NCBI GenBank assembly: GCA_902783515.1
Contig: CACZRK010000170.1
Coordinates: forward strand, 1-36,527
Direction of reading: 5' to 3'
DNA: 36,527 bases
DNA from: an uncultured Coriobacteriaceae bacterium
GTDB taxonomy: Bacteria > Actinomycetota > Coriobacteriia > Coriobacteriales > UMGS124
Shown: positions 1 through 34,071 of the stretch, piece after piece
How the letters are laid out: every line of letters begins with the position of its first letter
How positions within the stretch are numbered: the stretch's first letter is position 1
Notes under the pieces: model-generated
The model's database searches: none
What the model was told of the DNA's origin: nothing
What the model saw: only the letters and a program-made list of their open reading frames with translations
Translations under genes and position numbers: made by a program

Positions 1-1232
1 GCCAGCGTGTCCGCAGGCACGCCCATTGCCTCGGCAAGTTCTTCGAGCGTGTCTGCCGTGACGTAGGCGTCGGCGTGCGCGGTGATGTTGTTCTGGACCG
101 ACTTGGCTATGCAGCGAGCATCGAACGCCTGCTGGTCGAAGATGACCCACCACTCGCGGTAGCCGGCCGCGATCGCGGCTGCCGCGGCGTCGTGGCTCTG
201 ACCCTCCTGGATAAAGCGCTTGCCGTTGGGCAGCACGAGCACGAGCGGGGCCCAGTAGCCCCACGTCGTCGCGTTGGGGATGTCGCCCATCAGGTTACAG
301 TAGGTGGTTGAGGAGTCCATGCCCATGATCATTGCGCCAGCAGCCGCCGCCATGGCGTGGCCCTCGCCCATGCAGCCGTGCACGAGCTGGCCGTATGGCG
401 AGAAGTCGGGCACGTACTTCGCGACCATCTCGCCGTTGTCGGCGAAACCGCCGGTCGCAAGCACGACGGCGCCGGCCTTGATGTCCACGGCGTTCCCGTC
501 CTCGTCGCGGAAGCGGCAGCCGATCACCGCGCCGTCGGGGGCATCCTTGATGAGCGCCGTTGCACGCAGGCCGTAGTCAAACTCACAGCCCATCCGTTCG
601 AGCTTCGCCTGCAACGGTGCGAGGATGTACTCGTAGCCCGTGCCGATGCCCTCGCCGGGCAGGATGACCGTGGAGGCGAGGCGCGGCATCTCGTCGTCGG
701 TCGGCGGCTCTTGGAACGTGCAACCGAAGTCGTTGATGGCGCTGTCAACGAAGGCGGTGTTGGCGTACGTCTTGCCCTTGACCCAGTCGGGGTACCAGGC
801 GTACTGGTCAAAGCCACCCACGAGCTTGTCCCTGGACGCCTCCCAGTACTGGTCGATCGTCATCTGCTTGCCGGCGCCCAGCTGCAGCTCGGTGCCGTTG
901 GCGAACATGAACCAGCAGGAGAAGGCGGAGTCGCCGCCGAACGTGTCCTTCTTCTCGGCGAAGATGACAGACTTGCCCGCCTTCGCCGGCTCCATGGCGG
1001 CGGCGAGCCCGGAGAGGCCGGTTCCCACAATGAGGACGTCCGCCTCCTTGGTGAAGCTCACGGCGGCGTCGCCCACCGCGACGCCCGCGGTCGCCTCCGC
1101 GGCACCTGCGGTCGCCGTGCCGACGACGCCGGCCGCCGCGCCGCCGGCGACGAGGCAGGTGCCTCCCAGCTTGACGAGGTCCCTGCGCGTGAGCTGGCCG
1201 ATCTCGCGGTCGTGCTGCGTGCTGCTCTGCAT
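1..1232 (-). CDS. Tat-signal FAD-dependent reductase (fumarate/urocanate-reductase-like flavoprotein); C-terminus lies beyond the left window edge
   Basis: Absent from the ORF track because it runs off the edge. My own reverse-strand translation from ATG (comp. 1230-1232) gives MQSSTQHDREIGQLTRRDLVKLGG (twin-arginine motif), then DVLIVGTGLSGLAAA (GxGxxG FAD fold) and VVLATGGFADN. GGGGA lies 5 nt upstream of the ATG. Confidence 0.85.
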   Translation of the reverse strand, partial: MQSSTQHDREIGQLTRRDLVKLGGTCLVAGGAAAGVVGTATAGAAEATAGVAVGDAAVSFTKEADVLIVGTGLSGLAAAMEPAKAGKSVIFAEKKDTFGGDSAFSCWFMFANGTELQLGAGKQMTIDQYWEASRDKLVGGFDQYAWYPDWVKGKTYANTAFVDSAINDFGCTFQEPPTDDEMPRLASTVILPGEGIGTGYEYILAPLQAKLERMGCEFDYGLRATALIKDAPDGAVIGCRFRDEDGNAVDIKAGAVVLATGGFADNGEMVAKYVPDFSPYGQLVHGCMGEGHAMAAAAGAMIMGMDSSTTYCNLMGDIPNATTWGYWAPLVLVLPNGKRFIQEGQSHDAAAAAIAAGYREWWVIFDQQAFDARCIAKSVQNNITAHADAYVTADTLEELAEAMGVPADTL

Positions 1233-1266
1233 GATGTCCCCAATCCCCCGGTCTTGACCTGTGCGT

Positions 1267-1307
1267 GTTGCGGCCCGCCGGCGCGATGTGGCGCCGGGCG
1301 CCGCAAC
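1267..1307. promoter_or_regulatory. GC-rich interrupted palindrome in the divergent reductase/LuxR control region
   Basis: GTTGCGGC-CCG-CCGGCGC-GATGTG-GCGCCGG-GC-GCCGCAAC. The 8-bp outer arms and 7-bp inner arms are exact reverse complements. It lies 35 nt upstream of the reductase ATG at 1232. Confidence 0.35.
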
Positions 1308-1540
1308 GAGTCCGCGCGTCGTGTTCTCGCGCGGTTCCTCCCCGACGTCCGACGGGCGTCGACGGCATGCCGTATCATAGGGACCACCGCCGCGCAGTAC
1401 CTCACCGACATTCAATGAGACGCGCTGTTATCGCAGGTACAGAGGTAAAAACGGAACTCGTCTACACCACGGGCCACACGGTGTTCCGGCGGGGTGCGAC
1501 GGCTGCGGGGAATTCACGGACGATCGCGGGAGGGTGCGAC

Positions 1541-3199
1541 ATGCCATTGCGGCTCACGGGGACGGACGCTCGTTGCCTGAATCTCGCTGGTTCGCGCACC
1601 GCGCCGCTCGCCGTCGAGCCTCTCGGGCGCGGGCGGGCGGCGCTGCTCGTCATTGGATACGGCTGCTACCATGCCGCGAGCTCTGCCGGCTACCTGTCGG
1701 CGATGGGAACGGTGGAGTCGAGCGTGGGATTCGTCTCGTCGCTGGCGTTCATGATCGCGAACTGCGCTGCCGGCATCGTCGCGCCGACGCTGGTTGCGCT
1801 GTGCGCGGCTCATTTCGCGCGGCGTCCGAACCGCATGCTTTCCGGTATGGGTCACGTGCTCCTACTTGTGGCTGTCCTGGTCGGCGCGTTCCCTCTGAGT
1901 GTTGCTCCCGATGGAGTCCGCGTCGCGCTCGGCGTCATGCGCGGGGTCGGCGCGTCCCTCGCCGCCATCGCGTGGGTCGCCCTGTACGTCGCTCATGCAC
2001 GCGAGCGGCTGCTCCCGCTCTTCCTGACGATGTTCGCGCTTGATGGCGCCCTGGGAATCGTCTTGGGGGCGCTGCCGCCGGGCGCGGTCCGAGGTGCCGC
2101 CGTCGGGGCTCTGCTTGCCGTCTCGTGCGGATGCGCTCTTGCTCTGCCGTCGTCGCCGCGCTCGCGGCCATCGTCGCGCCCGCGGTCGCGAGCGACGGGC
2201 CGCGCTGTCCGCGACCTGCTCGCCGACGCGTCCGTTCGTCGTCTCGCCAGCGCCTGGCTCTGCTTCCTCGTCGCGCATTTCATCGTGGGGCTCGTGAACA
2301 CGGCAGTGTTTACCTCGGGCCTCACGGCTGCGCTCGCAAGCGTGAACGTCAGCCTTGCCATTCTCGGCGCGACCGTGCTCGTGGCCGTCGCGTCGCTGCC
2401 CGCCCATCGCGCGCCCAACCCCGAGGCGACGTTCGTGGTCGCGATGCCGATCATGCTCGTCGTGTTCACCCTCATGTCGTTCATGACGGATCGGCTCGGA
2501 GCCGTTGCGGGCTATGCGGTCGTCGGGAGCTATGAGGCCATGGCGATGTGCTTCTCGATTTTCTTTGTCGCGTTCCTGCGTGACGGCGAACACGACGTGT
2601 ATCTCTGCGATGGGATCATGGCTGCCGTCTCGAACGCCACGCTGCTGCTCGGCCTCGTAATGGGCGCGTGGCTGAATGCGCTGTGCAGCAGAAGCGGCGT
2701 GCCGCTGCTGACGCTGCTGGCGTTCGCGGCCATCTACCCCGTCGGCATCGCCCTGCTCCTGCTGCAGCGCAGCCGCATTCGCGACCGTGAGCGTGTCGAG
2801 CGAGAACGCCTCGTGAGCGAGATGCGCGAGGAGCAGGCGCGGCATGTCGACGAGGCCGTGCGCCAGTCCACTCGGGTCCTTCGCGAGCGCGGCGTCGACG
2901 CGTTCGCGTCGCGCCATGGCCTTACGCGTCGTGAGACGCAGGTGTGTGACCTGCTGACGCGCGGATATACGGCGAAGTCGGTCGCCGAGACACTCGGCGT
3001 GACTGACAACACCGCCTGGACGCACATCCGCAGCGTCTACCTCAAGTGCGGCGTCTCCGGACGGCAGGCGCTGATTGGCGCGTTCGAGGGGTTCATGGGC
3101 GACGATGGTGCGCCAACGACGTCCGACGGCCCGGCGGTTCTTGGGGCGTCGAGCAAACGCGGGACGTCCGGTGACGCCGACGGCGGCGCCCCCAGGTGA
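1541..3199 (+). CDS. Polytopic-membrane LuxR-family regulator (about 12 hydrophobic segments plus C-terminal LuxR/GerE HTH)
   Basis: Track ORF 1265-3199. I moved the start to the in-frame ATG 1541 (GGGAGG 7 nt upstream). The C-terminus reads LTRRETQVCDLLTRGYTAKSVAETLGVTDNTAWTHIRSVYLKCGV. The preceding ~450 aa are almost entirely hydrophobic stretches. Confidence 0.85.
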   Translation: MPLRLTGTDARCLNLAGSRTAPLAVEPLGRGRAALLVIGYGCYHAASSAGYLSAMGTVESSVGFVSSLAFMIANCAAGIVAPTLVALCAAHFARRPNRMLSGMGHVLLLVAVLVGAFPLSVAPDGVRVALGVMRGVGASLAAIAWVALYVAHARERLLPLFLTMFALDGALGIVLGALPPGAVRGAAVGALLAVSCGCALALPSSPRSRPSSRPRSRATGRAVRDLLADASVRRLASAWLCFLVAHFIVGLVNTAVFTSGLTAALASVNVSLAILGATVLVAVASLPAHRAPNPEATFVVAMPIMLVVFTLMSFMTDRLGAVAGYAVVGSYEAMAMCFSIFFVAFLRDGEHDVYLCDGIMAAVSNATLLLGLVMGAWLNALCSRSGVPLLTLLAFAAIYPVGIALLLLQRSRIRDRERVERERLVSEMREEQARHVDEAVRQSTRVLRERGVDAFASRHGLTRRETQVCDLLTRGYTAKSVAETLGVTDNTAWTHIRSVYLKCGVSGRQALIGAFEGFMGDDGAPTTSDGPAVLGASSKRGTSGDADGGAPR

Positions 3200-3253: not shown

Positions 3254-3535
3254 TCAACCCCTGCGCACCTCGTCCACCATCGCGAACAGCTCGTTGCGCG
3301 TGTGGATGCCGAGCTTCTGGTAGACGTGGCGCACATGCGCCTTGGCAGTGCCGTTTGCCACACAGAGCTCGCGCTGGATGTCGCTCGCCGTCATGTGCCG
3401 CGCGAGGGGCAGCAACACCTCTTCCTCACGTCGCGAGAGGTTGTGAGAGATGCGCTGTCTGTCGGCGGACGATGACGAGATTGCGATGGAATCCTGTCGG
3501 TGATACAGCGAAATACGCGCAACGCTCTCGTCTCG
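3254..3535 (-). pseudogene. Orphan LuxR-type HTH remnant (about 93 codons, no usable start codon, no membrane domain)
   Basis: My reverse-strand translation between TGA (comp. 3536-3538) and the stop (comp. 3254-3256) reads LSRREEEVLLPLARHMTASDIQRELCVANGTAKAHVRHVYQKLGIHTRNELFAMVDEVRRG. The only ATG lies inside the HTH, and there is no in-frame GTG or TTG upstream. The flanking DNA switches to low G+C at about 3540. Confidence 0.7.
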
Positions 3536-4224: not shown

Positions 4225-5124
4225 ATGGGGGCGCGTATGGGAAATGCTACGCAATCGCCATCGGAGAGTGCTCGCAATAAGACCTACACGATCGGGGCGC
4301 TCCAAGAGACATTTGGTGTTTCTCGGAACACGTTGCTGTATTACGAGAAAGCAGGCATTGTCACGCCAGCGGTCGATTCCAACAACGGTTACCGAACATA
4401 TACCAATGACGATGTCTTTCGTCTATTTGAGAGCGTGGCCATGCGCAATGTGGGCCTAACGCTCGACGAATCGCGGGAGCTACTTGCGAGCTCAAGTATC
4501 AGTGCCGCAGATCGCCTTGATCGCTGCCTCGATATGTCACATCGTATGCGCAGTTGGCATGAAGCTGCCGAAGAAACTCTAGATGATGTTCGTGCGGTAG
4601 CTCGCGGCGAGAACGATGCTTGTCTTGCGCGTCTTGTTAGCGCGCCACGATGGTACCTCTATTTAACGGATGCTGAAACTGGATATGAAAATTTTTGCTC
4701 GAACAAGTCTCTAGATATCCTTCTTAGAAATTATCCTGTATCTTGTCCAGCAATCCTAATTGATGACGATTTTAATACACATGAGCATATCCAGCCGCGC
4801 TGGGGAAGGGCGATTGAGTCCGATCGTGCGGGCTTATTGCCCGAACCAGTTGACGTGGACGCATCAGATGCGGAGCTCGGTGGATGCTCGTGTGTCACGC
4901 TCGCATATGTGACGCGCTGCGCCGATGTGCCCGGCTTTGACCCAGATTATGAAGTTCGCGATTGCGTGCATGCGTTTATTAAGAAATATGGGCTATGCAT
5001 AGACGAAGACAAGCGGGCATTCGCTGTTAACGCATTTCCGGTGCACGGATTCTTTTTTTCGCGCCTATTCGTCCCCGTGCGTGCCCATACCATTCGCGGT
5101 AAGTTCGCGACGCGATGCATTTAA
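4225..5124 (+). CDS. MerR-family transcriptional regulator with a ~190-aa C-terminal putative effector domain
   Basis: YTIGALQETFGVSRNTLLYYEKAGIVTPAVDSNNGYRTYTNDDVFRLFESVAMRNVGLTLDESRELL is a MerR-type HTH plus wing. The alternative start ATG 4237 has GGGGG 6 nt upstream. Confidence 0.85.
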   Translation: MGARMGNATQSPSESARNKTYTIGALQETFGVSRNTLLYYEKAGIVTPAVDSNNGYRTYTNDDVFRLFESVAMRNVGLTLDESRELLASSSISAADRLDRCLDMSHRMRSWHEAAEETLDDVRAVARGENDACLARLVSAPRWYLYLTDAETGYENFCSNKSLDILLRNYPVSCPAILIDDDFNTHEHIQPRWGRAIESDRAGLLPEPVDVDASDAELGGCSCVTLAYVTRCADVPGFDPDYEVRDCVHAFIKKYGLCIDEDKRAFAVNAFPVHGFFFSRLFVPVRAHTIRGKFATRCI

Positions 5125-5198: not shown

Positions 5199-5308
5199 CT
5201 GCAATCCGTAGTCATCTCATAGTCGGGGCAATCACGGTGCGAGACGCAACGCGTCATTGCGTTGGCTCGTGATGATCTGTGACTGCACGCTTCGACAAGG
5301 AGGATGCT

Positions 5309-6883
5309 ATGTCTGAGATTACACGTCGCGGGTTTCTTTCGGGCATGGGGACGGCCGCCGCAGTGATGGGGACGAGCAGCGTTGCACTTGCGTCACAACC
5401 CAAGTCGTCGCGGTCGTCGGCAGCTAAGGACTTCGACGAGACATATGACGTTGTTGTCATTGGGGATGGGTTTGCTGGCAATACCGCCGCTCTGTTTGCC
5501 GCGAAGGCCGGTGCAAAGGTTCTCATCCTCGAGAAGGCTGATGAGGGCGCTCGCGGAGGAAACTCACGTGTCTGCGGTCAGATGATGCTATATGCGCATG
5601 ACTATGATGCATGTGTTAAGTACCTTACCGCGCTACAGGGTGAGATGAATCATGATGATGAATATATTTCAGCATATGCTGATGGCATAACCAATCTAAA
5701 GGATATCCTCTCAGAATTCGGTATTGATAACCCAGTAGAGTGGCATGCCCTCATTGAGGACAACGAAGAGACGGCCAAGAAGACGGGCATCAAGATGCTC
5801 GCGGGCATTATGGCTCCGGAGTATCCGGAGTTCCCAGGATCCGATCAGATGGACGCCATGTGTGCGCACGAAGGGGTCTTTGACTCATATTTCTACCAGA
5901 CGGTTGCTCAGACGGTTGACTCCCTGGAAAACGTGACCGTCGCGTTTCAAACGCCGGCGAAGCATCTTATCCAAGATCCTGAAACGAAGGCGATAGTGGG
6001 CGTCATCGCCGAGAGAGATGGGGCTGAAGTTCGCTACGGCGCCACGTCCGGCGTCGTTATGGCTTGCGGTGGATTTGAATGCAACAAGGACATGATTGAG
6101 AACTTCATCGGCTGCTCCTATATCGGTCATGTAGGCGGTGACTACAACACTGGGGATGGCATCAAGATGGCCCAGGAGGTAGGAGCCGACTTCTGGCATC
6201 TCACCAGCTACGAGGGCGGCGGACTGGTCGGTGGCCTGTCTTGGAGGGTGCCCGAGGGAGACCGTGCGCCGTTTATTCTGGGGTTCGGATCAGTCAAGAA
6301 GGGTGCCATCTTCATCGTCGCCGATGACGGGACGCGCTATTTCAACGAGGTTCAAACTTCACGTCACGGCAAGATTAACTTCCATGGTATTTATCGCGCC
6401 CCGAACACCTCTATTCATCCGTGGATGATCTTCGATCAGTCCCAGTATGACGCCTTCGATCAGAAGGGCGGTATCCTCCCTGACGACGCGAGCATCATTG
6501 TTACGGGAGAGACCATAGAAGAGATCGCGGAGAAGACAGGCATAGATCCCGAGAAGCTTGCCGATACCTATGCGCGCTTTAATGAGTATGCACAGACAGG
6601 CGAGGACAGGGACTACGGCCGTGCGGCCGAAAGCATGGCGCCCTTTGAGGGAACGATCTACGCCATTCCGCTCATCCATGTGATGTTGAACACTCAGGGC
6701 GGTGCACGTCGGAATGCAAAGGCTCAGGTGCTCGATCCAGACGGCAACCCGATTCCCAATCTGTACAGCGCCGGAGAGTTCGGCGGCGTTGCGAGCTTCT
6801 ATTACAACGGCGGTGGCAATGTCGCTGAGTGCCTGACCTTCGGCAAGATTGCCGGCACGAATGCGGCTGGCGGGGACAAGTAG
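5309..6883 (+). CDS. Tat-signal FAD-dependent reductase (fumarate-reductase-like flavoprotein)
   Basis: Track ORF 5279-6883. I moved the start to ATG 5309 (AAGGAGG, 5-nt spacer). MSEITRRGFLSGMGTAAAVMGTSSVALA is the Tat signal, YDVVVIGDGFAGNTAALFAAKAGAKVLILEK is the FAD fold, and the C-terminus has NTQGGARRN and IPNLYSAGEFGG. Confidence 0.9.
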   Translation: MSEITRRGFLSGMGTAAAVMGTSSVALASQPKSSRSSAAKDFDETYDVVVIGDGFAGNTAALFAAKAGAKVLILEKADEGARGGNSRVCGQMMLYAHDYDACVKYLTALQGEMNHDDEYISAYADGITNLKDILSEFGIDNPVEWHALIEDNEETAKKTGIKMLAGIMAPEYPEFPGSDQMDAMCAHEGVFDSYFYQTVAQTVDSLENVTVAFQTPAKHLIQDPETKAIVGVIAERDGAEVRYGATSGVVMACGGFECNKDMIENFIGCSYIGHVGGDYNTGDGIKMAQEVGADFWHLTSYEGGGLVGGLSWRVPEGDRAPFILGFGSVKKGAIFIVADDGTRYFNEVQTSRHGKINFHGIYRAPNTSIHPWMIFDQSQYDAFDQKGGILPDDASIIVTGETIEEIAEKTGIDPEKLADTYARFNEYAQTGEDRDYGRAAESMAPFEGTIYAIPLIHVMLNTQGGARRNAKAQVLDPDGNPIPNLYSAGEFGGVASFYYNGGGNVAECLTFGKIAGTNAAGGDK

Positions 6884-6963
6884 GCCGCGGAAGAGCTTCA
6901 TTACTTGGCAAGTGTTACTACGTAAAAGATGAAATGAACTAAGCAATATTTAGGAAATACTGT

Positions 6964-6997
6964 GGCCCGGCGTGCTCATGAGGTGAGACGCCGGGCC
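6964..6997. terminator. Hairpin between a convergent reductase gene and a reductase pseudogene
   Basis: GGCCCGGCG-16 nt-CGCCGGGCC, a 9-bp perfect stem. An A/T-rich flank on the left would form a U-rich tail for the minus-strand transcript. Confidence 0.45.
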
Positions 6998-7137
6998 CAA
7001 TTCACAGGACTGGGATTGCACGCCGCCGTTTCAGGGCGTTTCGCCACGACCCGAGCTATCGACCTTTCCAATCCGGCCGGCACTATGTTACCCGTGGCGG
7101 CGCTGACATCGCATGCTGCCTTTATCGATGCGCGATA

Positions 7138-7782
7138 CTATTTTGCAAGGTAATCCGATGCGCTCAGTGCTGCAATTCGACCAGAGTTAATTGCCCATGA
7201 AGCGCCGGATCCGGCGGCGATGCCAGCATCGTATACGTCGCCATAGAAGCCACCCGTATCTCAACCGCCTGCAAAAAGGCCGGGAATGACCATATCATCG
7301 GCTGTGAGCACGTTTGTGAGCGCGTTCACCTTCAGGCCACCGCAAGTCGTGAAGTATGCGTCCTGGCAGTCGAATGCGTAGTACGGGCCATCATCATCGG
7401 TCATGGCGATCATGTAGTCGCTCGGCGTGTGGAAGTCCTCGTCAAAGCCCTCATCGCAGAAGCCGTTGTACTTCTCGAATGTTGCCTGCAACGCATCCGC
7501 GTCAAGTCCGGAAGCCGCGGCGAGATCGGCAATGGTGTCGGCCTTTACGGCGTGACCATTACCGGATGCGAGGAGCCCCTCGACCTCTTCCTTTAGGCCC
7601 GTGAGCTTCTGTCCGGCTGCGACCCAGACCCCGATGCCCGTCAGAGCACCGTCGCCCGTCTCAAACCGATCAAGCAAGGCCTGGGTGAAAATCGCCCATA
7701 CCTTTTTTTGCTTGCGCATGGCGCAGCCCGCGAACGGGAAGTTCTTGAGAAACATGTCCTTGCAAATGCAGCGACGCTGCAC
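7138..7782 (-). pseudogene. Decayed C-terminal half of a flavoprotein reductase (in-frame TGA, N-terminal FAD domain deleted)
   Basis: Track ORF 7261-7782 reads VWAIFTQALLDRFE...KADTIADLAAASGLDADALQATFEKYNGFCDEGFDEDFH...GPYYAF...CGGLKVN...IPGLFAGG, then stops at TGA (comp. 7261-7263). The same frame continues as DTGGFYGDVYDAGIAAGSGASWAINSGRIAALSASDYLAK to TAG (comp. 7138-7140). No Tat signal or GxGxxG motif exists between 7782 and the LuxR stop at 7923. Frame-shifted traces may extend to 7861. Confidence 0.75.
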
Positions 7783-7922: not shown

Positions 7923-9479
7923 TCATGCGTCGGTGTCGTGCCGCTCGATGACGGCAAGGAGCTCCTCGCGCGTATGGACGCCTAGCTTGCGATAGATCGA
8001 CTTCGTGTGCGCCTTCACTGTGTTCTCAGACAGAACGAGGCATGACGCGATGGACGCGATCGTTTTCCCACGCGCGAGTTCGCACAGGACCTCATGCTCA
8101 CGGGCCGAGAGGTGGTCGCTCGCTGCGATGGCGTCACAGCTACGCGTTAAGGCGGCAACGTATGACCCTTCGGAACCAGGAGCGATCGTGAGTTCTACGC
8201 TCTTCGTTCGCACCTTTGAGGAAGCAAGGCTAATCGGAATCACGGGCACCACATATTCGAAGGAGTATACGTCGCGATCGAAGTAGTTCACGCGAAAGAT
8301 GCTGTAGGAGCGGTTTGACAGCAGGACGAACCCAAAGAACAGGATGGCGTACGTGAGAGTCATGACCATGACGGAAGCAATTGACGAGTCCACAGCGCTT
8401 ACGAGGTGCTCGAGAACCGTTCCAAGCACAAGCCCACCGACGTTTGCGATCATCGCGGCAGAAAACACGCGCACGGGATTGTGTCCCGCCATGGCAACGA
8501 TGGGACCGAGCGCAAGATATACCATCGAGAGAAACAGATAGTAGCCGGAGAAGAGGAGCATCGGAACAAGCTGCGTGTCCGATCCGGTGGGGAGCGCATG
8601 GAAGAGCATCGCCGCGGAAAGCAGAACGAGCACGGCAGTGGGCGACAGAAGGAAGCCGTGTCGTTCTGCTGCAACTTCTGCCAGCGTGATGGCGATCATG
8701 ACAACGATGACAACGGAGAGCACCGAGGCCCATACGGTATGCAAGGACATTGTCGCCCGAATTCCCTCACTATCGATCAGATAGTTGTAAGGGATGGAGA
8801 ATATCGCAATGCAGATATAGAAAAGCGCCGCCGATCTGCGAGGTTTGCTTGCCGTTCTTGGGACCCACGAGTCCATGAGACCCTCCATGAGACGGTTCAC
8901 GCGTCGCAGGCACGCAAGGCTTGCCATGGGTAGGCATACATATACGATTAATGCGACAGCATCAGGCAACTCAACTTCAATAAAGTAGAGAACAACCGAC
9001 ATAACGATAGCAACAAGCGTGATGAAGAGCTGCTCGTCTTTAGGGTCCATGAACTTATACGTCTCTCCCCATGCCACGATGAGGGGGGTTGTTCCGCAAG
9101 CAAGCAGCACGTCGCTCGCGAGCAATAGGGGCAAGGGAAGGTGGACGATGGTGCTGACGAGAAGCGTTACCTGGCCGACGGCGATCAGCGCCCCCATGGT
9201 CTCAATCGAATGTTTCCAACGGAGGAGCGTTGACACTCTGCGCGAGAGCGCAAGACAGACGACGAACATGGCGAGTGTCGCGAGCGTGTTCACGACCCAG
9301 AAGCTTCCAACGCGTGACACTTGCGAGCCCTCGAATATCGTCCAGAAAAATGTCACGCCATGGAGCGTCGCCCACTGAGTGGCCATGCCTACGGTGGCGA
9401 GCATGACGGCGATGACGCGCTGCACATCGAACGACGAGCCGCCGCCCGCGCCGATGTCTCCTTCGCACAACGCTGCCAT
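7923..9479 (-). CDS. Polytopic-membrane LuxR-family regulator
   Basis: Track ORF 7923-9629 (TTG start). I prefer ATG at comp. 9477-9479 (AAGGGAG, 6-nt spacer). About 12 hydrophobic segments. The C-terminus reads LSAREHEVLCELARGKTIASIASCLVLSENTVKAHTKSIYRKLGVHTREELL. Confidence 0.85.
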   Translation of the reverse strand: MAALCEGDIGAGGGSSFDVQRVIAVMLATVGMATQWATLHGVTFFWTIFEGSQVSRVGSFWVVNTLATLAMFVVCLALSRRVSTLLRWKHSIETMGALIAVGQVTLLVSTIVHLPLPLLLASDVLLACGTTPLIVAWGETYKFMDPKDEQLFITLVAIVMSVVLYFIEVELPDAVALIVYVCLPMASLACLRRVNRLMEGLMDSWVPRTASKPRRSAALFYICIAIFSIPYNYLIDSEGIRATMSLHTVWASVLSVVIVVMIAITLAEVAAERHGFLLSPTAVLVLLSAAMLFHALPTGSDTQLVPMLLFSGYYLFLSMVYLALGPIVAMAGHNPVRVFSAAMIANVGGLVLGTVLEHLVSAVDSSIASVMVMTLTYAILFFGFVLLSNRSYSIFRVNYFDRDVYSFEYVVPVIPISLASSKVRTKSVELTIAPGSEGSYVAALTRSCDAIAASDHLSAREHEVLCELARGKTIASIASCLVLSENTVKAHTKSIYRKLGVHTREELLAVIERHDTDA

Positions 9480-9792: not shown

Positions 9793-11742
9793 ATGGAGAT
9801 CACCAGAAGGGGATTCGTTGGGATGGCAGGGGCGATCGGCGCAACGGCGCTGGGAACACGCTCTTTGAGCGCGCCAGCGATTGCCTCCACATCTTCGACC
9901 GCCGATGACAGCGTGGCATCGAAGAGCCCTGTTGCCGCCTATGACGCAGACGTCTGCGTCATAGGCGGCGGCAACTCGGGACTTGCTGCCGCCGTCGAGG
10001 CGGCCCAGCAGGGCCTGGGCGTCGTACTGCTCGAGAAACAAGGGTCTACGGGCGGCGGCGGAATTGGCACGGAAGGCGTCTTCGCGGTCGGATCTCAGAT
10101 GCAGAAAGACGCTGGGATTGAGATTGAGCCCGCTGAGGTCATCGCCACCGAGATGAGCTACTCGCACAACCGTGCGAACGGGCAGAAGTGGCTTGATCTC
10201 ATCAACAACTCCGGCGACAACGTGAGCTGGTTGCAGGAGTGCGGTGTCAATTTCACCGGCGTCGTGGATGACTACCATGGCGGTCAGTACAAGACGTTCC
10301 ACTGGTTCGGCGTGAATCGCGCCCACGACGACTACACGCCTGCCATGACGAAGACGGCGGAGAGTCTTGGCGTGCAGATTCTCACGTGGACCCCGGCACA
10401 GTCCCTCCTGCAGGATTCGGACGGCACGATCACGGGCGTTCTCGCAGAGAAGCAAAACGGCGACATCGTCAAGGTTAACGCAAAGGCGGTCGTGCTCGCG
10501 ACCGGGGGCTTTGCAAACAATGATGACTATCTGCAAGAAGGCGGCTTCTCGGACACAACCAATGTCGTGCGTTTCCTCTACGGCTTCAATGGCGACGGCG
10601 TTCGCATGGCCGTTGAAGCGGGTGGCGCTGACAATATCCCGCGTATTTCCGGCCTCATGCAGCTCACTGTCTCCGGGGCTCCGGGAGGAGAGTACGGAAC
10701 GTTCGGCCAGGGAGACGGCCTTGTCGTGGCGGGGCACGCTGCGCAGTCAATCTGGGTGAATGAGGACGCCGAACGGTTCTGCGCCGAGTCCGCGGGCGTC
10801 GAGAACTGGATGGCGGACATGGTGCCGTCGCTTATGCACGCGAAGCTCTACTCCATCTATGACGCAAAGGTGTTCAAGGCCGCGTTTGACGGCATGATTG
10901 CTCCACGTATCGACTGGGACGCCACACAGGAAGAGCTTCGACAGCGCATCGAGGAGAACCCGTACAATGACTTCTTTAGCGCGGACACACTTGATGAGCT
11001 CGCAGGGAAGGCGGCTGATGCCTGCGGTCTTGACTATGACACACTGATCAGGACCATCGAGGACTACAACGACATGTGCGATGCCGGGGCAGACGCGTAC
11101 TTCGGCAAGCCCGCCGAGTATCTGCAAAAGCTCGAGAATCCACCCTACTACTTCTGCTATATGCCGCAGGCATGCATGGTGACGTTCGGCGGCATTCGCA
11201 CGAATCGCAAGATGGAGGTTGTTGACAGGAACGGCAGGGCGATACCTGGCCTGTATTCGTGCGGCGTCGACTCCGCCGACCTGTGGCCCAACGTCTACAC
11301 TATCAACGTTCCTGGCGGATGCAACGCGAACAACATCAACTCCGGGCGTAGCGCGGGCAGGAATGCTGCGACCTATATTGGCGCTGGTGCGCTTGGTGCG
11401 GTGAAGTCCCAGGGTGACACGAGCCCATCCGCCCCCGACGCACACTGGCCTGCACCGGAGGGCGCGTGGGCCGACGGCTCATACACCGACACCGAACGCG
11501 GGATGTTTGGCGACATTACGGTGAGCGTCACGATTCAGGGTGGCAAGGTCACGGCGATCACGCAGACAAACGAACTTGAGACCACCTACGTGGGAGTCCC
11601 GGCCATGGAGGATGAGCTCATCCCCGCTGTCATCAATGCACAAACCAGTGATGTGGCGACTGTGGCTGGTGCCACGATGACGTCGAATGGTTTTCGTTCG
11701 GCAGTACAGGCATGTCTGGAACAGGCGGCACATGCGTCTTAA
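9793..11742 (+). CDS. Tat-signal FAD-dependent reductase with a C-terminal FMN_bind-like domain
   Basis: AAGGAGGG lies 7 nt upstream of the ATG. MEITRRGFVGMAGAIGATALG is the Tat signal and YDADVCVIGGGNSGLAAAVEAAQQGLGVVLLEK is the FAD fold. The last ~90 aa (GMFGDITVSVTIQGGKVTAITQ...DVATVAGATMTSNGFRSAV) look like an FMN_bind module with a GAT flavinylation motif. Confidence 0.9.
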   Translation: MEITRRGFVGMAGAIGATALGTRSLSAPAIASTSSTADDSVASKSPVAAYDADVCVIGGGNSGLAAAVEAAQQGLGVVLLEKQGSTGGGGIGTEGVFAVGSQMQKDAGIEIEPAEVIATEMSYSHNRANGQKWLDLINNSGDNVSWLQECGVNFTGVVDDYHGGQYKTFHWFGVNRAHDDYTPAMTKTAESLGVQILTWTPAQSLLQDSDGTITGVLAEKQNGDIVKVNAKAVVLATGGFANNDDYLQEGGFSDTTNVVRFLYGFNGDGVRMAVEAGGADNIPRISGLMQLTVSGAPGGEYGTFGQGDGLVVAGHAAQSIWVNEDAERFCAESAGVENWMADMVPSLMHAKLYSIYDAKVFKAAFDGMIAPRIDWDATQEELRQRIEENPYNDFFSADTLDELAGKAADACGLDYDTLIRTIEDYNDMCDAGADAYFGKPAEYLQKLENPPYYFCYMPQACMVTFGGIRTNRKMEVVDRNGRAIPGLYSCGVDSADLWPNVYTINVPGGCNANNINSGRSAGRNAATYIGAGALGAVKSQGDTSPSAPDAHWPAPEGAWADGSYTDTERGMFGDITVSVTIQGGKVTAITQTNELETTYVGVPAMEDELIPAVINAQTSDVATVAGATMTSNGFRSAVQACLEQAAHAS

Positions 11743-11834
11743 GTGCGTCGTGTTCCTGCTGGTGGGCAAATGCACGCTATGCCCGAGGTTCGAGGAGGCT
11801 GCGCGGAGCCCCCATGTGGAGAGGATGGTATGAA

Positions 11835-13538
11835 ATGAGCAATGGTAGTCGAGTGAGCCGTCGTTCATTCATCGCCGGAGCCACAGCGACAGCAGGCGTC
11901 TTTGCTGTTTCCTCACTGGCGCAGGCATCTGAATCAACGAAGAAGGGCTTGCCGGAGTCCAGTGCAGGCGTCACTGCTGATGACAAGTGGGCATTTGAGA
12001 TTGCTCCCGACAAGATCGCCGAAAAGGACATCGTCAAGACGAAGTCCGCGGACGTAGTGGTCGTTGGCTGCGGCATGTCGGGCTTGGTGACCGCCGCTTC
12101 TGCCGCTGAGAACGGACTCTCGGTGATTATCGTCACGGCGTCCGAGGGGCCAGTCAGCCGGGGTGGATCTAACAATGCTATTTACTCCAAGACAATGGAG
12201 TCTCTTGGTTTAAAGAAAGTAGATCAAGACTGGTATAGAACACAGTATATGATAAATAATGGAAATTTTAAGCCAGGTTTCTGGTACAAGCACTATAACC
12301 ATTCCGAAGAGGCAATGAACTGGCTGATTGACATTGCAACAGCGGCGGGGATTAAGACGACAGTCGAGAGTGGTGCAGAGTACTCTGAGGACGACATCAT
12401 GTACACGCCTGCCGGTGCCCATGCGTTCTATGTCGATGACGAGGAACTCAATGGTACCGTCGGCACGGGTGAGGCGCACATTGCTGCGGAGCTCGCTCGC
12501 CATGTCGTCGAGGATTTGGGTCAAGAGATCGATTATCAGACTAGAGCGGTGCGATTGGTACGTGGATTGGATGACGCGAGCGGAAAAGTCACGGCAGTTA
12601 TCGCTCAAACAACGGCTGGTGACTATGTGAAGTACGAGGGTGCCAAGGGCATCGTCATGGCGACGGGAGATTTCACGCATAACCGCGACATGATGGCGAG
12701 ATATGCACCAGAGGTCATGGAGCTTTGCGACTTCTCAAAGGAGGTCGACTACGATGCGGGCCTCATGACTAACGGTATATATGACGGCGAAGGCCAGCAG
12801 ATGGAGCTTTGGATCGGCGCTGCGTGGCAGAAGACACCAAACGTCATCATGCTCGGTCGACCGAACTTGCCGGCAGACAACCCATATACTTCACATACCG
12901 GTCTTATGGTTGATAAGAACGGTCAACGATTCATGAACGAGGACGTGCTGGGCGGCGTTGCTTGTGCCACAATCATGCATCTGCCCGGAGATACGTGCTA
13001 CTGCATCTGGTCGGCAAATCGCGCTGCAGCCGGTGGTCCTTGGGGTAAGCCAAACTATGCCCATGGAGAGCGATTCGCTGATGCGGCAGAGATGCAAGCG
13101 ACGTGGGATGAGGATACGTATGGCTATGGCATTGTAAGGGAGGAGACACTCGACGAACTCATCAACAAGCTTGGTCTGCCCGCTGCGACGATGGATACCA
13201 TTGCGCGCTACAACGAAATGTGCAATGCGGGCGAGGACGTGGACTACTACAAGGATGCATCCAAGCTTATCCCGATAGAAGGGGGACCGTTCTATGGTTG
13301 CTCCTATAAACCTATGCTACTGACGGTTCTTGGTGGCACGCGTACAAATGTTGACCTGCAGGTTCTTGACGCTAAGGACGAGCCGATCGACGGCCTGTTC
13401 AACGTCGGAACAATGATCGGTGACTTTTATTCCGGCGTGTACACTTTTGCCATGGAGGGCATGAACTACGGGTCTACGTGCATTACACTGCCGTATCTGC
13501 TTGGCAAGGATCTCGCTGCCGGCAAGTTCGACAAGTAG
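11835..13538 (+). CDS. Tat-signal FAD-dependent reductase, second gene of a two-reductase operon
   Basis: Track ORF 11712-13538. I moved the start to ATG 11835. MSNGSRVSRRSFIAGATATAGVFAVSSLAQA is the Tat signal and ADVVVVGCGMSGLVTAASAAENGLSVIIV is the FAD fold. The gap to the upstream gene is 92 bp with no hairpin. Confidence 0.9.
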   Translation: MSNGSRVSRRSFIAGATATAGVFAVSSLAQASESTKKGLPESSAGVTADDKWAFEIAPDKIAEKDIVKTKSADVVVVGCGMSGLVTAASAAENGLSVIIVTASEGPVSRGGSNNAIYSKTMESLGLKKVDQDWYRTQYMINNGNFKPGFWYKHYNHSEEAMNWLIDIATAAGIKTTVESGAEYSEDDIMYTPAGAHAFYVDDEELNGTVGTGEAHIAAELARHVVEDLGQEIDYQTRAVRLVRGLDDASGKVTAVIAQTTAGDYVKYEGAKGIVMATGDFTHNRDMMARYAPEVMELCDFSKEVDYDAGLMTNGIYDGEGQQMELWIGAAWQKTPNVIMLGRPNLPADNPYTSHTGLMVDKNGQRFMNEDVLGGVACATIMHLPGDTCYCIWSANRAAAGGPWGKPNYAHGERFADAAEMQATWDEDTYGYGIVREETLDELINKLGLPAATMDTIARYNEMCNAGEDVDYYKDASKLIPIEGGPFYGCSYKPMLLTVLGGTRTNVDLQVLDAKDEPIDGLFNVGTMIGDFYSGVYTFAMEGMNYGSTCITLPYLLGKDLAAGKFDK

Positions 13539-13611: not shown

Positions 13612-15189
13612 TCACTGCCGCCCGTTATCTCCGATAGGCGAAATCATCTCGATGGCATCGAGCATCTCCTGACGGTCGGTCACGCCCATCTTCTGGTAGA
13701 TACGCGCGACATACGTCTTCACCGTGCTGCGAGAGATGGACAGTCGCTCGGCGATGTGCGGGATGCTACGGCCTCTCGCCACGAGACTCATCACCTCTGC
13801 CTCCCGCTTTGTGAGCTCGTAGCGCTGGATTGCCAGCATGCACTGGTCGGCGAAGAGATACGCCTCTGCCTTCGGATAGTTGATGGTGGGGTTGAGATGC
13901 GCTCGGTGAAAGATGCTGCGGCTATCGAGTAGAGCCGAGGTGAGGAGCACGAGGACGCAGATGGCGCTGACGACGAAGACGAGCGTCCCGTCCTCTGCCG
14001 CGAATAGTTCGTCGCGCAGATCGATGAAGGCCAGCGCGCCGAGGGGTACCGCGCTCTCGATCGCGCGATACACGCCGAAGGCCAGGCCGGGACGCACGCC
14101 ATCCTTGGCGCACAGGCTTGCGACAAGCACAAAGACGAACAGGTCAAAGCATGTGTAGCCAATCGATACAAGTGTTGAGCTGAGCCCCGAGTAATAGTTG
14201 AAGGCCACTGCGAAGAGCAAGCCGGAAAACACCAAAGGCAATACAAGTTTCGAGATATATGAGACGGTGAACGTGCCTTGCGTAGCGAGGCAGACGACGA
14301 GCAGGACAGTCATGATAACGAGCGATCCGACAATGGTCGCGATGCCGAGTCGCTCGGCGCCATCACCCGTCAATGACGCGCCCGTGCGCGCATCGAGCAT
14401 GATCATCCAAGTTATGATGCCGAACAGGACAAAGACGACCATCACACGCCAGATGTCCGCGACAAACGCGTTGTGTCGCGCGCCAGCATGCGCGGACGTG
14501 AGATATGGCGCGGTTGGAGTACCCGCGTCATTGCTGACGCTGCCACCCCCGCGCGGCGGTGCTAGATGATAGGCGACCATCGAGCCCGGTAGCAGCATTG
14601 CGAAGAGCGTTCCCCGCACGATCGTCGGCAGTGGCGCGAGGACGAGGCATGTGAGCAGCGCAATGCAAAAGCTCGATAGCGCAAGAGTCGTGATGACATG
14701 CGCATCAAGCGCACAGTAACGGATCCCCCAAGCAACGATTATGAATGCGGCAAAGACGCGACCGACGCCTCGATAAAGCGCGACGGACATGTCTGACCCG
14801 ATCGTGCCGTGCGTGGCAAGTATTAGCGTCGCGAGTGTTGTCAGCCCCGCGAGTATGGCAGCGGTGTCAGCCATCCTCGGAAAATGCGCGGTCTTTGAGA
14901 GCATCAGAGCGACGAGCAAATAGCTTGTCGCGTTGCAGATTGCGCCGATGACTGTTGCTGTCCACTGCACGCCTGCAAATCGGTCGGGTGGCACGACCGG
15001 AAAGAGGTAGATGTCAGTAAGATTCCACGCATAGAAGCATGCAAGGCCAATGGCATAGGGGAGAAGCGCCAGTAATGCTCCATCGCCGGAGGGGCGTGCC
15101 CATCGGGTGATCGGCACGCCCGGCGCCGCAAGTCGTACTTTCTGGTCGACGTGCTCTTCTACGGTGTTGGCCTGTTGATCTGACCACAT
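13612..15189 (-). CDS. Polytopic-membrane LuxR-family regulator
   Basis: Track ORF 13612-15282 (GTG start). I prefer ATG at comp. 15187-15189, though its RBS is weak. There are many hydrophobic segments. The C-terminus reads LTKREAEVMSLVARGRSIPHIAERLSISRSTVKTYVARIYQKMGVTDRQEML. Confidence 0.8.
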   Translation of the reverse strand: MWSDQQANTVEEHVDQKVRLAAPGVPITRWARPSGDGALLALLPYAIGLACFYAWNLTDIYLFPVVPPDRFAGVQWTATVIGAICNATSYLLVALMLSKTAHFPRMADTAAILAGLTTLATLILATHGTIGSDMSVALYRGVGRVFAAFIIVAWGIRYCALDAHVITTLALSSFCIALLTCLVLAPLPTIVRGTLFAMLLPGSMVAYHLAPPRGGGSVSNDAGTPTAPYLTSAHAGARHNAFVADIWRVMVVFVLFGIITWMIMLDARTGASLTGDGAERLGIATIVGSLVIMTVLLVVCLATQGTFTVSYISKLVLPLVFSGLLFAVAFNYYSGLSSTLVSIGYTCFDLFVFVLVASLCAKDGVRPGLAFGVYRAIESAVPLGALAFIDLRDELFAAEDGTLVFVVSAICVLVLLTSALLDSRSIFHRAHLNPTINYPKAEAYLFADQCMLAIQRYELTKREAEVMSLVARGRSIPHIAERLSISRSTVKTYVARIYQKMGVTDRQEMLDAIEMISPIGDNGRQ

Positions 15190-15424
15190 TGCAGCCCCGT
15201 TTCGATAGCGTAGGTGCAAGTCGTGGGCGCAGACGCGGATGACGCATGGATGGCGAGATGCTCTGAAGCGTCGGGCGACCACGCGTCATCAGGCGTGCAC
15301 CCAAATGGTCTGGTTGCGCGCGCCGCCGCTCGGGACGACGTGCGGTCGACAACGACCCATAACGGCGTCTCGATTATAGGGTGACGGGATGGCGTCGGGA
15401 ATATTCGAGTGAATGGGGGATGAA

Positions 15425-17092
15425 ATGGGGTCAGCGAATACGTCGCGTAGGAGCTTTATCGCACTCGGTGCCGCTGTCGGCGCGATGGCGGTGGGGTCAG
15501 GGAGCCTTTCTGCGCTTGCCAAGGATGGCGAGAAGGTGGACTCTTCGCGGAAGGGCGACGTTGCAAGCGCTGGGGTCGACGCCAAGACTGATGCGCAGGC
15601 GCCGCTGCTTATGCCGAATCCTACGGGCATTGAGTTTCATCCGCCCGTGGAAGGTGAGAGCGCGTTCATTGCCGCACCTGTCAAGGAAAACGAGATCACC
15701 GAGACGGTCACGACCGACGTTGTCGTGTGCGGTGCCGGTATGAGTGGGGTCACGTGCGCCCTTTCCGCCGCGCAGAACGGTCTGAACGTCGTTCTACTTG
15801 AGAAGGGACAGGTATTTGCGGCACGTGGCACCGAGGTTGGCGCTATCGGCGATCGCGTGCACGCTGAGGCCGGTGTTGAGCTCGATCCTGACAAGTACCT
15901 TGCGGACGCGATGGCGACGGCTCACTTCCGCTGCGACCGCAATGTATGGTTGCGGTGGATCCAGCGCTCGGGCGAAGCGCTCGACTGGGCAATGGACCAG
16001 TGCGGTGACGCTTGCGGGAAGTTCTTCTGTGTTGGCGGAAACGTTGAGTTCGCTGGTGTGACTACGTGGGGAACTGGCGTGCGCTGCGACAACGGCATCC
16101 ACTCGTTTGTCGAGGCGCTGCTGAACGCGGCTGTTGCCGCCGGTGTTGACCTGCGCTACGAGACGCCTGCCTGCCAGCTCGTCAAGGACGCGTCCGGCAG
16201 GGTCACCGGCGTCATCGCAAAGAGCACGGAGGGCGAATACGTTCGCTTTGAGGCGGCAAAGGGCGTCGTCCTGGCGACTGGCGGATATGAGCATAACTGG
16301 GAGATGATCTCCCAGCGCTGCCGTCCGCGTGACATGGCTGCCTACGCTTGGAACAACCCAACTGTCACAGACACGGGCGATGGCATTGCGATGGGCGTTG
16401 CTGCAGGCGCGTCCGAAGATGATTACCCGCATATCCTGATGAATGATCCCGCCGGTGCACTGACCGGCGACCGCGCCAATGGCATCATGCCGGCTTTTTT
16501 GCGCGTTAACGCGAACGGTGAGCGGTTCGTTAACGAGAGCCTGTCGTTTGAGTACATGACGAATGCGATCATGTACCAGCCGGGTGCGCGAGATTACGTG
16601 ATCATGAGCGGCGATCTCACCGCTGCGGTCGATGCGATCAAGGGCGGTGCGCCGTGGTCGACCGAGGACATGATCGCAACGATCGAACCTGTCCTCATCA
16701 AGGCTGACACGCTCGAAGAGCTCGCAAAGACATGTGGCATCGACGTCGATGGTCTTGCGAAGACGGTTGAGCGCTATAACGAGCTGTGCGACGCGGGCGA
16801 GGATGCCGACTTCGGAAAGAACCCGAAGGCCCTGCTGCCGTTGCGTGAGGGTCCGTACTATGCCGTTGAGGAAAGCGGTACGTGCCTTGTGACCGTGAAC
16901 GGCCTGCGCACTAACGCGCGCTCCGAGGTGCTCGACCTGAAGGAGAGGCCGATCCCCGGGCTGTATGCGCTGGGCAACTCCTCCGGTAGCATGTTCTTCG
17001 GAACCTACCCGCACCATCTGAGCGCTATCAGCCACGGTCGCTGCGTGACGTTCGGGTATCTGCTCGGCAGGGAGCTTGCCGGAATTGAGTAG
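15425..17092 (+). CDS. Tat-signal FAD-dependent reductase
   Basis: Track ORF 15413-17092. ATG 15425 has GGGGGA 4 nt upstream, and ATG 15413 is an alternative start. MGSANTSRRSFIALGAAVGAMAVGSGSLSALA is the Tat signal and TDVVVCGAGMSGVTCALSAAQNGLNVVLLEK is the FAD fold. Confidence 0.9.
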   Translation: MGSANTSRRSFIALGAAVGAMAVGSGSLSALAKDGEKVDSSRKGDVASAGVDAKTDAQAPLLMPNPTGIEFHPPVEGESAFIAAPVKENEITETVTTDVVVCGAGMSGVTCALSAAQNGLNVVLLEKGQVFAARGTEVGAIGDRVHAEAGVELDPDKYLADAMATAHFRCDRNVWLRWIQRSGEALDWAMDQCGDACGKFFCVGGNVEFAGVTTWGTGVRCDNGIHSFVEALLNAAVAAGVDLRYETPACQLVKDASGRVTGVIAKSTEGEYVRFEAAKGVVLATGGYEHNWEMISQRCRPRDMAAYAWNNPTVTDTGDGIAMGVAAGASEDDYPHILMNDPAGALTGDRANGIMPAFLRVNANGERFVNESLSFEYMTNAIMYQPGARDYVIMSGDLTAAVDAIKGGAPWSTEDMIATIEPVLIKADTLEELAKTCGIDVDGLAKTVERYNELCDAGEDADFGKNPKALLPLREGPYYAVEESGTCLVTVNGLRTNARSEVLDLKERPIPGLYALGNSSGSMFFGTYPHHLSAISHGRCVTFGYLLGRELAGIE

Positions 17093-24483: not shown

Positions 24484-24676
24484 AAGACCTCCGCCCCCCG
24501 TCGCCGCGTGCGCTTCCAGGCGCTTACCGCACGGTACCACATTCCTTCACGTCGGCATTTCGCATTGATTGTGCGAGTGCGCGGCGTCGGCCTCCGGCGT
24601 ATGGTCAGGGCGATGCGCCTCGCAGGACAGGGGGTCTGCGACGGGGCGTGTGGCCACGATGACAAGGGGGATACGC

Positions 24677-28064: not shown

Positions 28065-28076
28065 ACGGGGGACTCC

Positions 28077-28119
28077 ATTCTGGCCAGATTAGAATAAGGA
28101 ATTCTGGCTATCAGAGAAT
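28077..28119. promoter_or_regulatory. Two tandem 19-bp units ATTCTGGC-N6-AGAAT (candidate MocR operator) in the MocR/cytochrome divergent spacer
   Basis: ATTCTGGCCAGATTAGAAT (28077-28095) and ATTCTGGCTATCAGAGAAT (28101-28119), with a 24-bp period. The first unit contains the perfect palindrome TCTGGCCAGA (28079-28088). Confidence 0.5.
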
Positions 28120-28258
28120 GACCATATACCTCATACGATGGACTGGCAACGATCGTCGGCCACATCGGCGCGCAGACGGCGCGCGGAGCGGCGGGCGGTC
28201 GGGATGGAAGGGGGAGATCGTGGGGAAGAGGGGTACGGACGTGGGCTCTCCGGGGCCC

Positions 28259-34034: not shown

Positions 34035-34071
34035 ACGGCCCACGGGCGGACTTGGCACACCCGTGGGCCGT
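34035..34071 (-). terminator. Terminator hairpin downstream of the 700-aa reductase gene
   Basis: ACGGCCCACGGG-13 nt-CCCGTGGGCCGT is a 12-bp perfect stem that starts 12 nt after the stop codon. On the minus strand it is followed by GATTGTTTG. Confidence 0.65.

Follow-up and report, generated by a model that had tools for sequence, protein, structure and literature searches.

The 36,527-nucleotide stretch of DNA analysed here (contig CACZRK010000170.1 of assembly GCA_902783515.1, from an uncultured Coriobacteriaceae bacterium; hereafter the window) encodes six proteins, R1-R6, in which a LuxR-type helix-turn-helix (HTH) is fused to a polytopic membrane domain. Each gene adjoins one for a flavoprotein reductase with a twin-arginine translocation (Tat) motif (Table 1). 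This raises the question of how a regulator that lacks a recognisable sensory module perceives a signal, and what that signal might be. We consider it likely that R1-R6 are membrane-integral one-component activators, in which a receptor with the fold of the major facilitator superfamily (MFS) binds the substrate of the partner reductase from the outside and controls the tethered GerE HTH.

The six genes are intact open reading frames (ORFs) encoding 516-552 amino acids (aa), as listed in an initial annotation made from the sequence alone. Pfam places PF00196 (GerE/LuxR) in the last ~55-60 aa of every one (E 2e-8 to 1e-16; 34-61 bits, with a gathering cutoff of 23.5) and finds no domain in the first ~430 aa of any. 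The NCBIfam matches are sub-threshold and essentially all on the HTH region; those to NarL, SdiA and similar models cover the HTH only and lie far under cutoff, and neither the autoinducer-binding domain PF03472 nor the receiver domain PF00072 was detected. The initial annotation had held that the HTH is the only recognisable soluble module and that receiver, PAS, GAF and autoinducer-binding domains are absent; Pfam, NCBIfam and PDB profile searches agree, detecting no known sensory or enzymatic domain. The shared HTH pattern that it described was found again (L-[ST]-x-R-E-x-x-V...G...T[VA]..[HY]...[IV]Y.K...V..R, in 6/6), as was the divergence of the membrane parts, which had appeared unalignable by eye next to a conserved HTH: the HTH regions share 35-48% pairwise identity, and pairwise BLAST between the membrane parts gave nothing better than E = 0.14.

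Proteins of this architecture have been described as a "previously unappreciated family" of LuxRs with 10-12 transmembrane (TM) helices, widespread in Coriobacteriia (Dong et al., 2022; Nat Commun 13:7624, PMC9734109). Eggerthella lenta DSM 2243 encodes 83 TM LuxRs, 74 with 10-12 helices; 50 adjoin flavin enzymes and 19 molybdenum enzymes, and in the published family the TM domains are <20% identical and the DNA-binding domains conserved (Dong et al., 2022). By deletion and complementation, DadR, HcdR and CadR were established as substrate-specific activators of the adjacent reductases, deletion abolishing induction (Dong et al., 2022). Little et al. (bioRxiv 10.1101/2022.12.26.521950) report such regulators as neighbours of 64 reductase genes in the same species and, for the secreted reductases, induction by the electron acceptor that each enzyme uses. 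Dong et al. (2022) call the molecular mechanism of sensing unclear, in agreement with the remark in the initial annotation that perception in this family is unresolved. The words MFS, transporter, AlphaFold and topology are absent from their main text, and the supplement gives a TMHMM/Protter topology for DadR. Within the literature searched, no later mechanistic or structural work on 10-12-TM LuxRs was found, nor any assignment of an MFS fold. The interpretation in the initial annotation is supported, yet it rediscovers the family of Dong et al. (2022); new in the present analysis is the predicted MFS fold of the membrane part, with degenerate transporter motifs.

Membership of R1-R6 in this family was assessed on the membrane domain. 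When 1.84 billion representatives were searched exhaustively by HMMER, the membrane part of R1 had only 87 relatives, mostly of 440-600 aa, the rest being shorter fragments; the full-length ones match over residues ~30-415 of R1, and 70 of the 71 relatives aligned carry GerE. A profile made from the membrane domains only of R1's relatives scores R6 at 62 bits, R5 at 53.5, R2 at 21, R3 at 10.7 and R4 at -3, with shuffled, block-shuffled and reversed controls at <=3.3 bits. When TM parts were compared with the R1 family by hhalign, the probabilities were 97.5% for both R5 and R6, 95.6% for R2, 70.9% for R3 and 17.8-33% for R4 (reversed-sequence controls <=1.2%). The R4 subfamily has five members even after a profile search, and against a broadened profile it scores weakly, above all controls, in a collinear alignment of near full length. 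At the profile level the six membrane parts are homologous, R2, R5 and R6 being linked strongly, R3 moderately and R4 weakly.

The sequences of DadR (Elen_0473), HcdR (Elen_3038) and CadR (Elen_0506) were taken from Supplementary Data 2 of Dong et al. (2022), the latter two being identified by translating the construct sequences of Supplementary Data 6. With the TM-only profile of the R1 family, the TM domains of DadR, HcdR and CadR reach 48.6, 43.1 and 28.6 bits, respectively (controls <=3.3 bits), and R1-R6 are therefore, by sequence homology, new and uncharacterised members of the published 10-12-TM LuxR family. Like R1-R6, the three E. lenta regulators combine 12 TM helices with a C-terminal PF00196 HTH in ~490-570 aa, come from the same host class, are placed beside reductase genes and have detectably homologous TM domains; in both sets the HTH is conserved and the TM domain falls below ~25% identity. 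None of R1-R6 is orthologous to a characterised member, and their partners are FAD_binding_2 flavin reductases; the targets of DadR, HcdR and CadR are molybdopterin catechol dehydroxylases. In a scan of 185,579 species genomes with an 8-sequence alignment as query, relatives of R1 occurred in Coriobacteriia only (Slackia, Paraeggerthella, and metagenome-assembled genomes, MAGs, of Eggerthellaceae or Coriobacteriales); the same scan with R1 alone as query gave no match.

The number of TM helices was determined by optimal-segment hydropathy analysis. In all six proteins hydrophobicity remains clear up to the 12th best segment (1.14-1.42) and drops at the 13th (0.38-0.97), giving twelve segments in each, where 11-12 hydrophobic stretches had been noted before; the AlphaFold models of R1 and R4 likewise contain 12 TM helices. 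A crude single-threshold count, superseded by this analysis, had given 10-11 helices and was overruled by the optimal segments together with the models. The helices are laid out 6+6 around a central loop of 25-51 aa in every regulator. With the N-terminus inside, lysines and arginines on the inner and outer sides number 23/4 in R1, 19/2 in R2, 14/6 in R3, 21/2 in R4, 21/6 in R5 and 19/2 in R6 by hydropathy segments, and 25/3 in R1 by model helices. Among 71 relatives of R1 the means are 17.6 inside and 1.3 outside, the inside exceeding the outside in 71/71. As these counts favour the inside, both termini and the HTH of R1-R6 are placed in the cytoplasm; the count is even, and an odd helix number with the HTH outside the cell, which the initial annotation had named as a finding that would speak against it, does not apply. 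None of the outer-face loops exceeds 23 aa, and there is therefore no extracellular domain for ligand binding.

The AlphaFold2 model of R1, built with a 71-sequence alignment (predicted local distance difference test, pLDDT, 86.9; predicted template modelling score, pTM, 0.79), has twelve TM helices arranged 6+6, with TM12 continuous to residue 458 and followed by a four-helix GerE domain. Foldseek found 219 matches to it in the PDB at E<=1e-3, the best 50 all being MFS transporters. The matches include VMAT2, VMAT1, NorA, MelB, G6PT, FLVCR and LmrP, over ~400 aligned columns with TM-scores (template modelling scores) of up to 0.68 by target length and 10-15% identity; for VMAT2 (8t69), E is 4.8e-7 and the TM-score 0.65 by target length. 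A mixed alignment was needed for the model of R4, since its subfamily has so few sequences. This model (pLDDT 82) has 173 PDB matches at E<=1e-3, of which the top ones are all MFS-type (MFS and the structurally related ENT1), led by PfHT1, SV2A, GLUT3, FLVCR, LmrP and YajR. The membrane domain of these regulators is thus predicted to adopt the MFS fold, and the suggestion that 12 TM helices are transporter-like is borne out at the level of the modelled fold. The R1 and R4 models share with VMAT2, NorA, LmrP, GLUT3 and PfHT1 the 6+6 arrangement of 12 TM helices, the N-in/C-in orientation and a long central cytoplasmic loop, at Foldseek E of 1e-5 to 5e-7, TM-scores of 0.55-0.68 by target length and only 10-16% identity. 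In contrast to these transporters, R1-R6 have no significant sequence-profile match to MFS, lack both motif A and conserved TM charges, and carry a C-terminal DNA-binding domain.

Strict, loose and PROSITE-style patterns for the MFS signature motif A (G-x-x-x-D-[RK]-x-G-R-[RK], located between TM2 and TM3 or between TM8 and TM9) matched 0 of 77 sequences. The TM residues conserved across the family are glycine, proline and aromatics (Y51, F70, W145, G250, P303, Y331, G371, G375 and Y399 in R1 numbering), and no intramembrane acid or base is conserved across it. Because motif A and conserved intramembrane charges are absent, the membrane domain probably no longer transports. These same absences argue against a true transceptor, in which the MFS domain would import or export the compound and the HTH would read the transport flux or an inward-facing, substrate-loaded state. 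The predicted fold matches active MFS carriers, some of which handle aromatic amines or acids (VMAT2, NorA and the MFS transporter 6zgs, with 3-phenylpropanoic acid bound), and this is in favour of transport. Nevertheless, the Tat-motif partner enzymes act outside the cell, so that import is not needed, and separate MFS transporter genes have been reported in some Coriobacteriia reductase clusters; we regard the transceptor as unlikely. The membrane domain may be an MFS transporter turned pure receptor, in which motif A and the coupling residues were lost, the external electron acceptor occupies the former substrate cavity and a rocker-switch movement directly gates the attached GerE HTH, a possibility that we hold a little short of probable.

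Membrane-tethered transcription factors that are freed by proteolysis are a known class, and the segment joining TM12 to the HTH is predicted to be disordered in R4 (aa 405-417), as might be expected if a ligand caused the protein to be cut within or beyond TM12 and transcription were activated by the soluble HTH fragment. The corresponding linker of R1 is rich in arginine and glutamate (RIRDRERVERERLVSEMREEQARHVDEAVRQ…) and is predicted, with high confidence, as one continuous helix from TM12, which speaks against cleavage; the linker region of R2 does not look helical, and conservation of the linker does not extend across the family. In E. lenta, DadR without its TM domain was expressed and inactive, a construct without the DNA-binding domain failed to complement, DadR with a shuffled linker still signalled, retaining partial function, and N-terminally FLAG-tagged DadR was of full length (56 kDa) after exposure to dopamine (Dong et al., 2022). 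The inactivity of the TM-less form, the signalling by the shuffled-linker form and the full-length protein after induction all disfavour proteolytic release, to which we assign the lowest probability of the explanations considered, well below that of transport. For DadR, the need for both domains has been shown.

A Tat-motif FAD_binding_2 gene adjoins each of the regulator genes, and in five of the six cases the two are divergent (R1/F0, R2/F2, R3/F4, R4/F5 and R5/F7). The arrangement recurs in relatives: a Tat-motif flavoprotein gene lies immediately upstream and divergent at six of eight related genome loci and nearby at a seventh, and likewise on a metagenome contig (L001) that carries a copy of the R1 locus, is 99.8% identical and contains the full-length F0 gene. 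An RRxF[LIV]-type twin-arginine motif is present near the N-terminus of every full-length flavoprotein of the window, and F0, which the ORF list had missed as it extends beyond the left end and whose protein begins MQSSTQHDREIGQLTRRDLVKLGG, also has a twin-arginine motif there, so that the proposal of Tat-exported partners, made in the initial annotation, is borne out by their sequences. Substrate-specific activation of a neighbouring gene is established for DadR, HcdR and CadR and proposed here for R1-R6.

The conserved pairing with reductases and the multihaem cytochrome gene in the window would also suit a membrane domain that senses indirectly, reporting on the partner reductase or on the electron-transfer chain (e.g. 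the state of a quinone or cytochrome), or that serves only as a dimerising anchor; the TM residues conserved across the family, which look structural rather than obviously ligand-binding, fit this as well. However, outer-face loops of at most 23 aa offer little surface for protein contacts, and the extreme divergence of the TM domain relative to the conserved HTH fits diversified ligand pockets. Moreover, dadh of E. lenta DSM 2243 is induced ~2^9-fold by dopamine in a DadR-dependent manner, though this strain is a non-metabolizer with an inactive Dadh variant (Dong et al., 2022), which argues against sensing of turnover. Indirect sensing therefore seems very unlikely to us, if marginally less so than proteolytic release. 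Taken together, the lack of a domain-sized outer loop, the location of the partner enzymes outside the cell and the induction of dadh in a strain with inactive Dadh argue for direct binding of the external compound in the cavity of the membrane domain, where ligand specificity would then reside.

A number of points weigh against reading R1-R6 as activators governed by an MFS-fold receptor. The fold rests on AlphaFold models, and the result for R4 is not independent of that for R1, because its alignment included R1's family. At the sequence level the tie to MFS is not established: no Pfam MFS family matches any of the six regulators at E<=1, and MFS_1 matches one of 71 relatives (E 1.2e-4); a PDB sequence-profile search returned HTH relatives only and no MFS chain, with one insignificant match in the TM part (5wuf, E 0.39); and a search for an internal repeat between the N- and C-terminal halves gave no signal (hhalign probability 0.9%). 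The absence of motif A is no proof that transport is absent. A single rigid relay is unlikely, as the linker is a continuous helix in one model and disordered in the other. Inverted-repeat scans of seven regulator-reductase intergenic regions yielded only short GC-rich palindromes as expected by chance, none of them shared, and no operator was found. Finally, co-divergence of regulator and enzyme as a simple rule had to be rejected: at one locus of an uncultured Coriobacteriales MAG (L009, 4161-5660 on the - strand and 6001-7428 on the + strand), a reductase 74% identical to F0 adjoins a regulator only ~39% identical to R1. The sensors appear either to drift much faster than the enzymes or to be exchanged between loci.

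If R1-R6 are nonetheless activators with an MFS-fold receptor, a compound that is reduced outside the cell by the adjacent Tat-exported flavin reductase would enter the MFS-like central cavity from the outer face. Its binding would move the domain between rocker-switch-like states, altering the cytoplasmic face or the oligomeric state. GerE domains, as in NarL, TraR and GerE itself, act as dimers. The tethered HTH, freed or paired by this change, could then occupy, as a dimer, the neighbouring and mostly divergent promoter region while the protein stays in the membrane; for R1 and F0, both promoters and the operator are presumed to lie in the 308 bp between the two genes. Ligand-controlled release or pairing of the HTH is favoured over a rigid piston because the linker varies between R1 and R4 and tolerates shuffling in DadR. 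The reductase gene would thereby be switched on, and probably the regulator's own gene too.

Elements of this scheme have precedents. UhpC of E. coli and Snf3/Rgt2 of yeast are non-transporting MFS-type receptors for an external small molecule, whose signal leaves via the cytoplasmic face to separate proteins, the UhpB kinase in the first case and casein kinase with Mth1/Std1 in the second. As far as the models go, R1-R6 would share the idea of a transporter-fold receptor, with the difference that sensor and output HTH form a single polypeptide. ToxR, CadC and TcpP likewise unite sensing and output in one protein; their membrane-tethered DNA-binding domain is thought to bind DNA without release, and they consist of a periplasmic sensor domain, a single TM helix and an N-terminal winged-helix (OmpR-type) DNA-binding domain. 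R1-R6 differ from these in their C-terminal GerE HTH, their polytopic sensor and the lack of an extracytoplasmic domain. The four-helix GerE domain at their C-terminus is homologous to that of the LuxR/TraR and NarL/FixJ-type regulators, from which they are distinguished by having neither an autoinducer-binding nor a receiver domain.

Gut Eggerthellaceae encode tens to hundreds of orphan respiratory-type reductases that act on drugs, dietary polyphenols and host metabolites, and each membrane LuxR amounts to a ready-made, highly specific biosensor for the substrate of its enzyme. Were the sensor an MFS-fold cavity, ligand perception could be tested by cavity mutagenesis, domain swaps and docking, and by structural work with methods established for MFS carriers. 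Should the membrane domain prove to be a transporter turned pure receptor, the family would be that of an MFS "transceptor" joined in one chain to a transcription factor of its own, with massive diversification in Coriobacteriia (E. lenta has 83 copies), and the cavity residues might serve as a code for the specificity of orphan reductases. The window itself contributes six regulator-reductase pairs and no new principle.

Table 1. Regulator genes, reductase genes and other features of the window (positions are those of the whole stretch).
Feature	Position	Strand	Description
R1	1541-3199	+	552 aa, ATG start; GGGAGG 7 nt 5' of the start; intact ORF. Predicted layout: N-terminal tail aa 1-29; MFS-fold membrane domain aa 30-411; TM12 helix extending to aa 458; GerE HTH aa 461-522; disordered tail aa 523-552
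R1 membrane domain	1628-2773	+	aa 30-411; predicted 12 TM helices, 6+6; K/R-rich central cytoplasmic loop aa 201-238
R1 linker	2771-2914	+	aa 411-458
R1 GerE HTH	2921-3106	+	Pfam GerE aa 461-512, E 1.9e-8; PDB profile matches include GerE, NarL and VraR
R2	7923-9479	-	518 aa; 12-TM LuxR regulator; divergent from flavoprotein F2; intact ORF
R3	13612-15189	-	525 aa; 12-TM LuxR regulator; divergent from F4; intact ORF
R4	19305-20855	+	516 aa; 12-TM LuxR regulator; most divergent of the six; intact ORF
R5	22933-24483	-	516 aa, GTG start; 12-TM LuxR regulator; divergent from F7; intact ORF
R6	32116-33705	-	529 aa; 12-TM LuxR regulator; same strand as F8, downstream of F8; intact ORF
R1/F0 intergenic region	1233-1540		308 bp, divergent
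F0	3-1232	-	FAD_binding_2 flavoprotein reductase, N-terminal 410 aa; Tat-type motif TRRDLV; R1's divergent partner; truncated by the left end of the window
F1	5279-6883	+	Flavoprotein reductase; Tat motif TRRGFL
F2	9793-11742	+	Tat-motif flavoprotein reductase; C-terminal FMN_bind domain
F3	11712-13538	+	After F2 on the same strand
F4	15413-17092	+	Tat-motif FAD_binding_2 flavoprotein reductase
F5	17291-19021	-	Tat-signal FAD_binding_2 flavoprotein reductase; divergent from R4; weak, sub-cutoff Pfam TAT_signal match
F6	21091-22719	-	Tat-motif flavoprotein reductase; same strand as R5, downstream of R5
F7	24569-26503	+	Tat-motif flavoprotein reductase
F8	34083-36185	-	Tat-motif flavoprotein reductase; C-terminal FMN_bind domain
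HTH-only ORF	3254-3418	-	54 aa; convergent with R1
MerR-family gene	4225-5124	+	299 aa, soluble
Flavoprotein fragment	7261-7782	-	173 aa; downstream of R2
GntR-family gene	26601-28064	-	487 aa
Multihaem cytochrome c gene	~28256-29722	+	Within ORF 27755-29722
Hairpin	34035-34071		Perfect 12-nt inverted repeat, 13-nt loop

Besides the regulator genes, nine FAD_binding_2 flavoprotein genes, together with one fragment, lie in the window, which is GC-rich (53-69% G + C); it further encodes a MerR, a MocR-like GntR, a multihaem cytochrome c and a PIN protein. F1 is preceded by the soluble MerR-family regulator and not by a membrane LuxR, and the F1/MerR stretch has a G + C content of 52.5%, compared with ~65% elsewhere in the window. 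Judging from the position of its RR motif, the true start of F7 is probably near 24677. The hairpin upstream of R6 lies just past the stop codon of F8; it probably terminates F8, and R6 would then have its own promoter.

Two ORFs look like remnants. The one convergent with R1 contains the C-terminal part of a LuxR/GerE HTH only (…ELCVANGTAKAHVRHVYQKLGIHTRNELFAMVDEVRRG) and was picked up on L001, too, as a weak GerE match; it looks like the remainder of a seventh membrane LuxR gene that lost its membrane domain. The flavoprotein fragment downstream of R2 is a C-terminal one, matching positions 315-395 only of the FAD_binding_2 profile, and is probably a decayed reductase gene.

The cytochrome, which has 11 CxxCH motifs for haem binding and a single hydrophobic helix at the N-terminus, may serve as a membrane-anchored electron donor to the Tat-exported flavin reductases encoded around it. 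Its real start is probably the methionine before the hydrophobic helix, the start of the longer ORF overlapping the GntR gene. The GntR-family regulator is encoded between a reductase gene and the cytochrome gene; the C-terminal part of this protein, with a GNFSKTL motif, looks like a MocR-type aminotransferase-fold domain.

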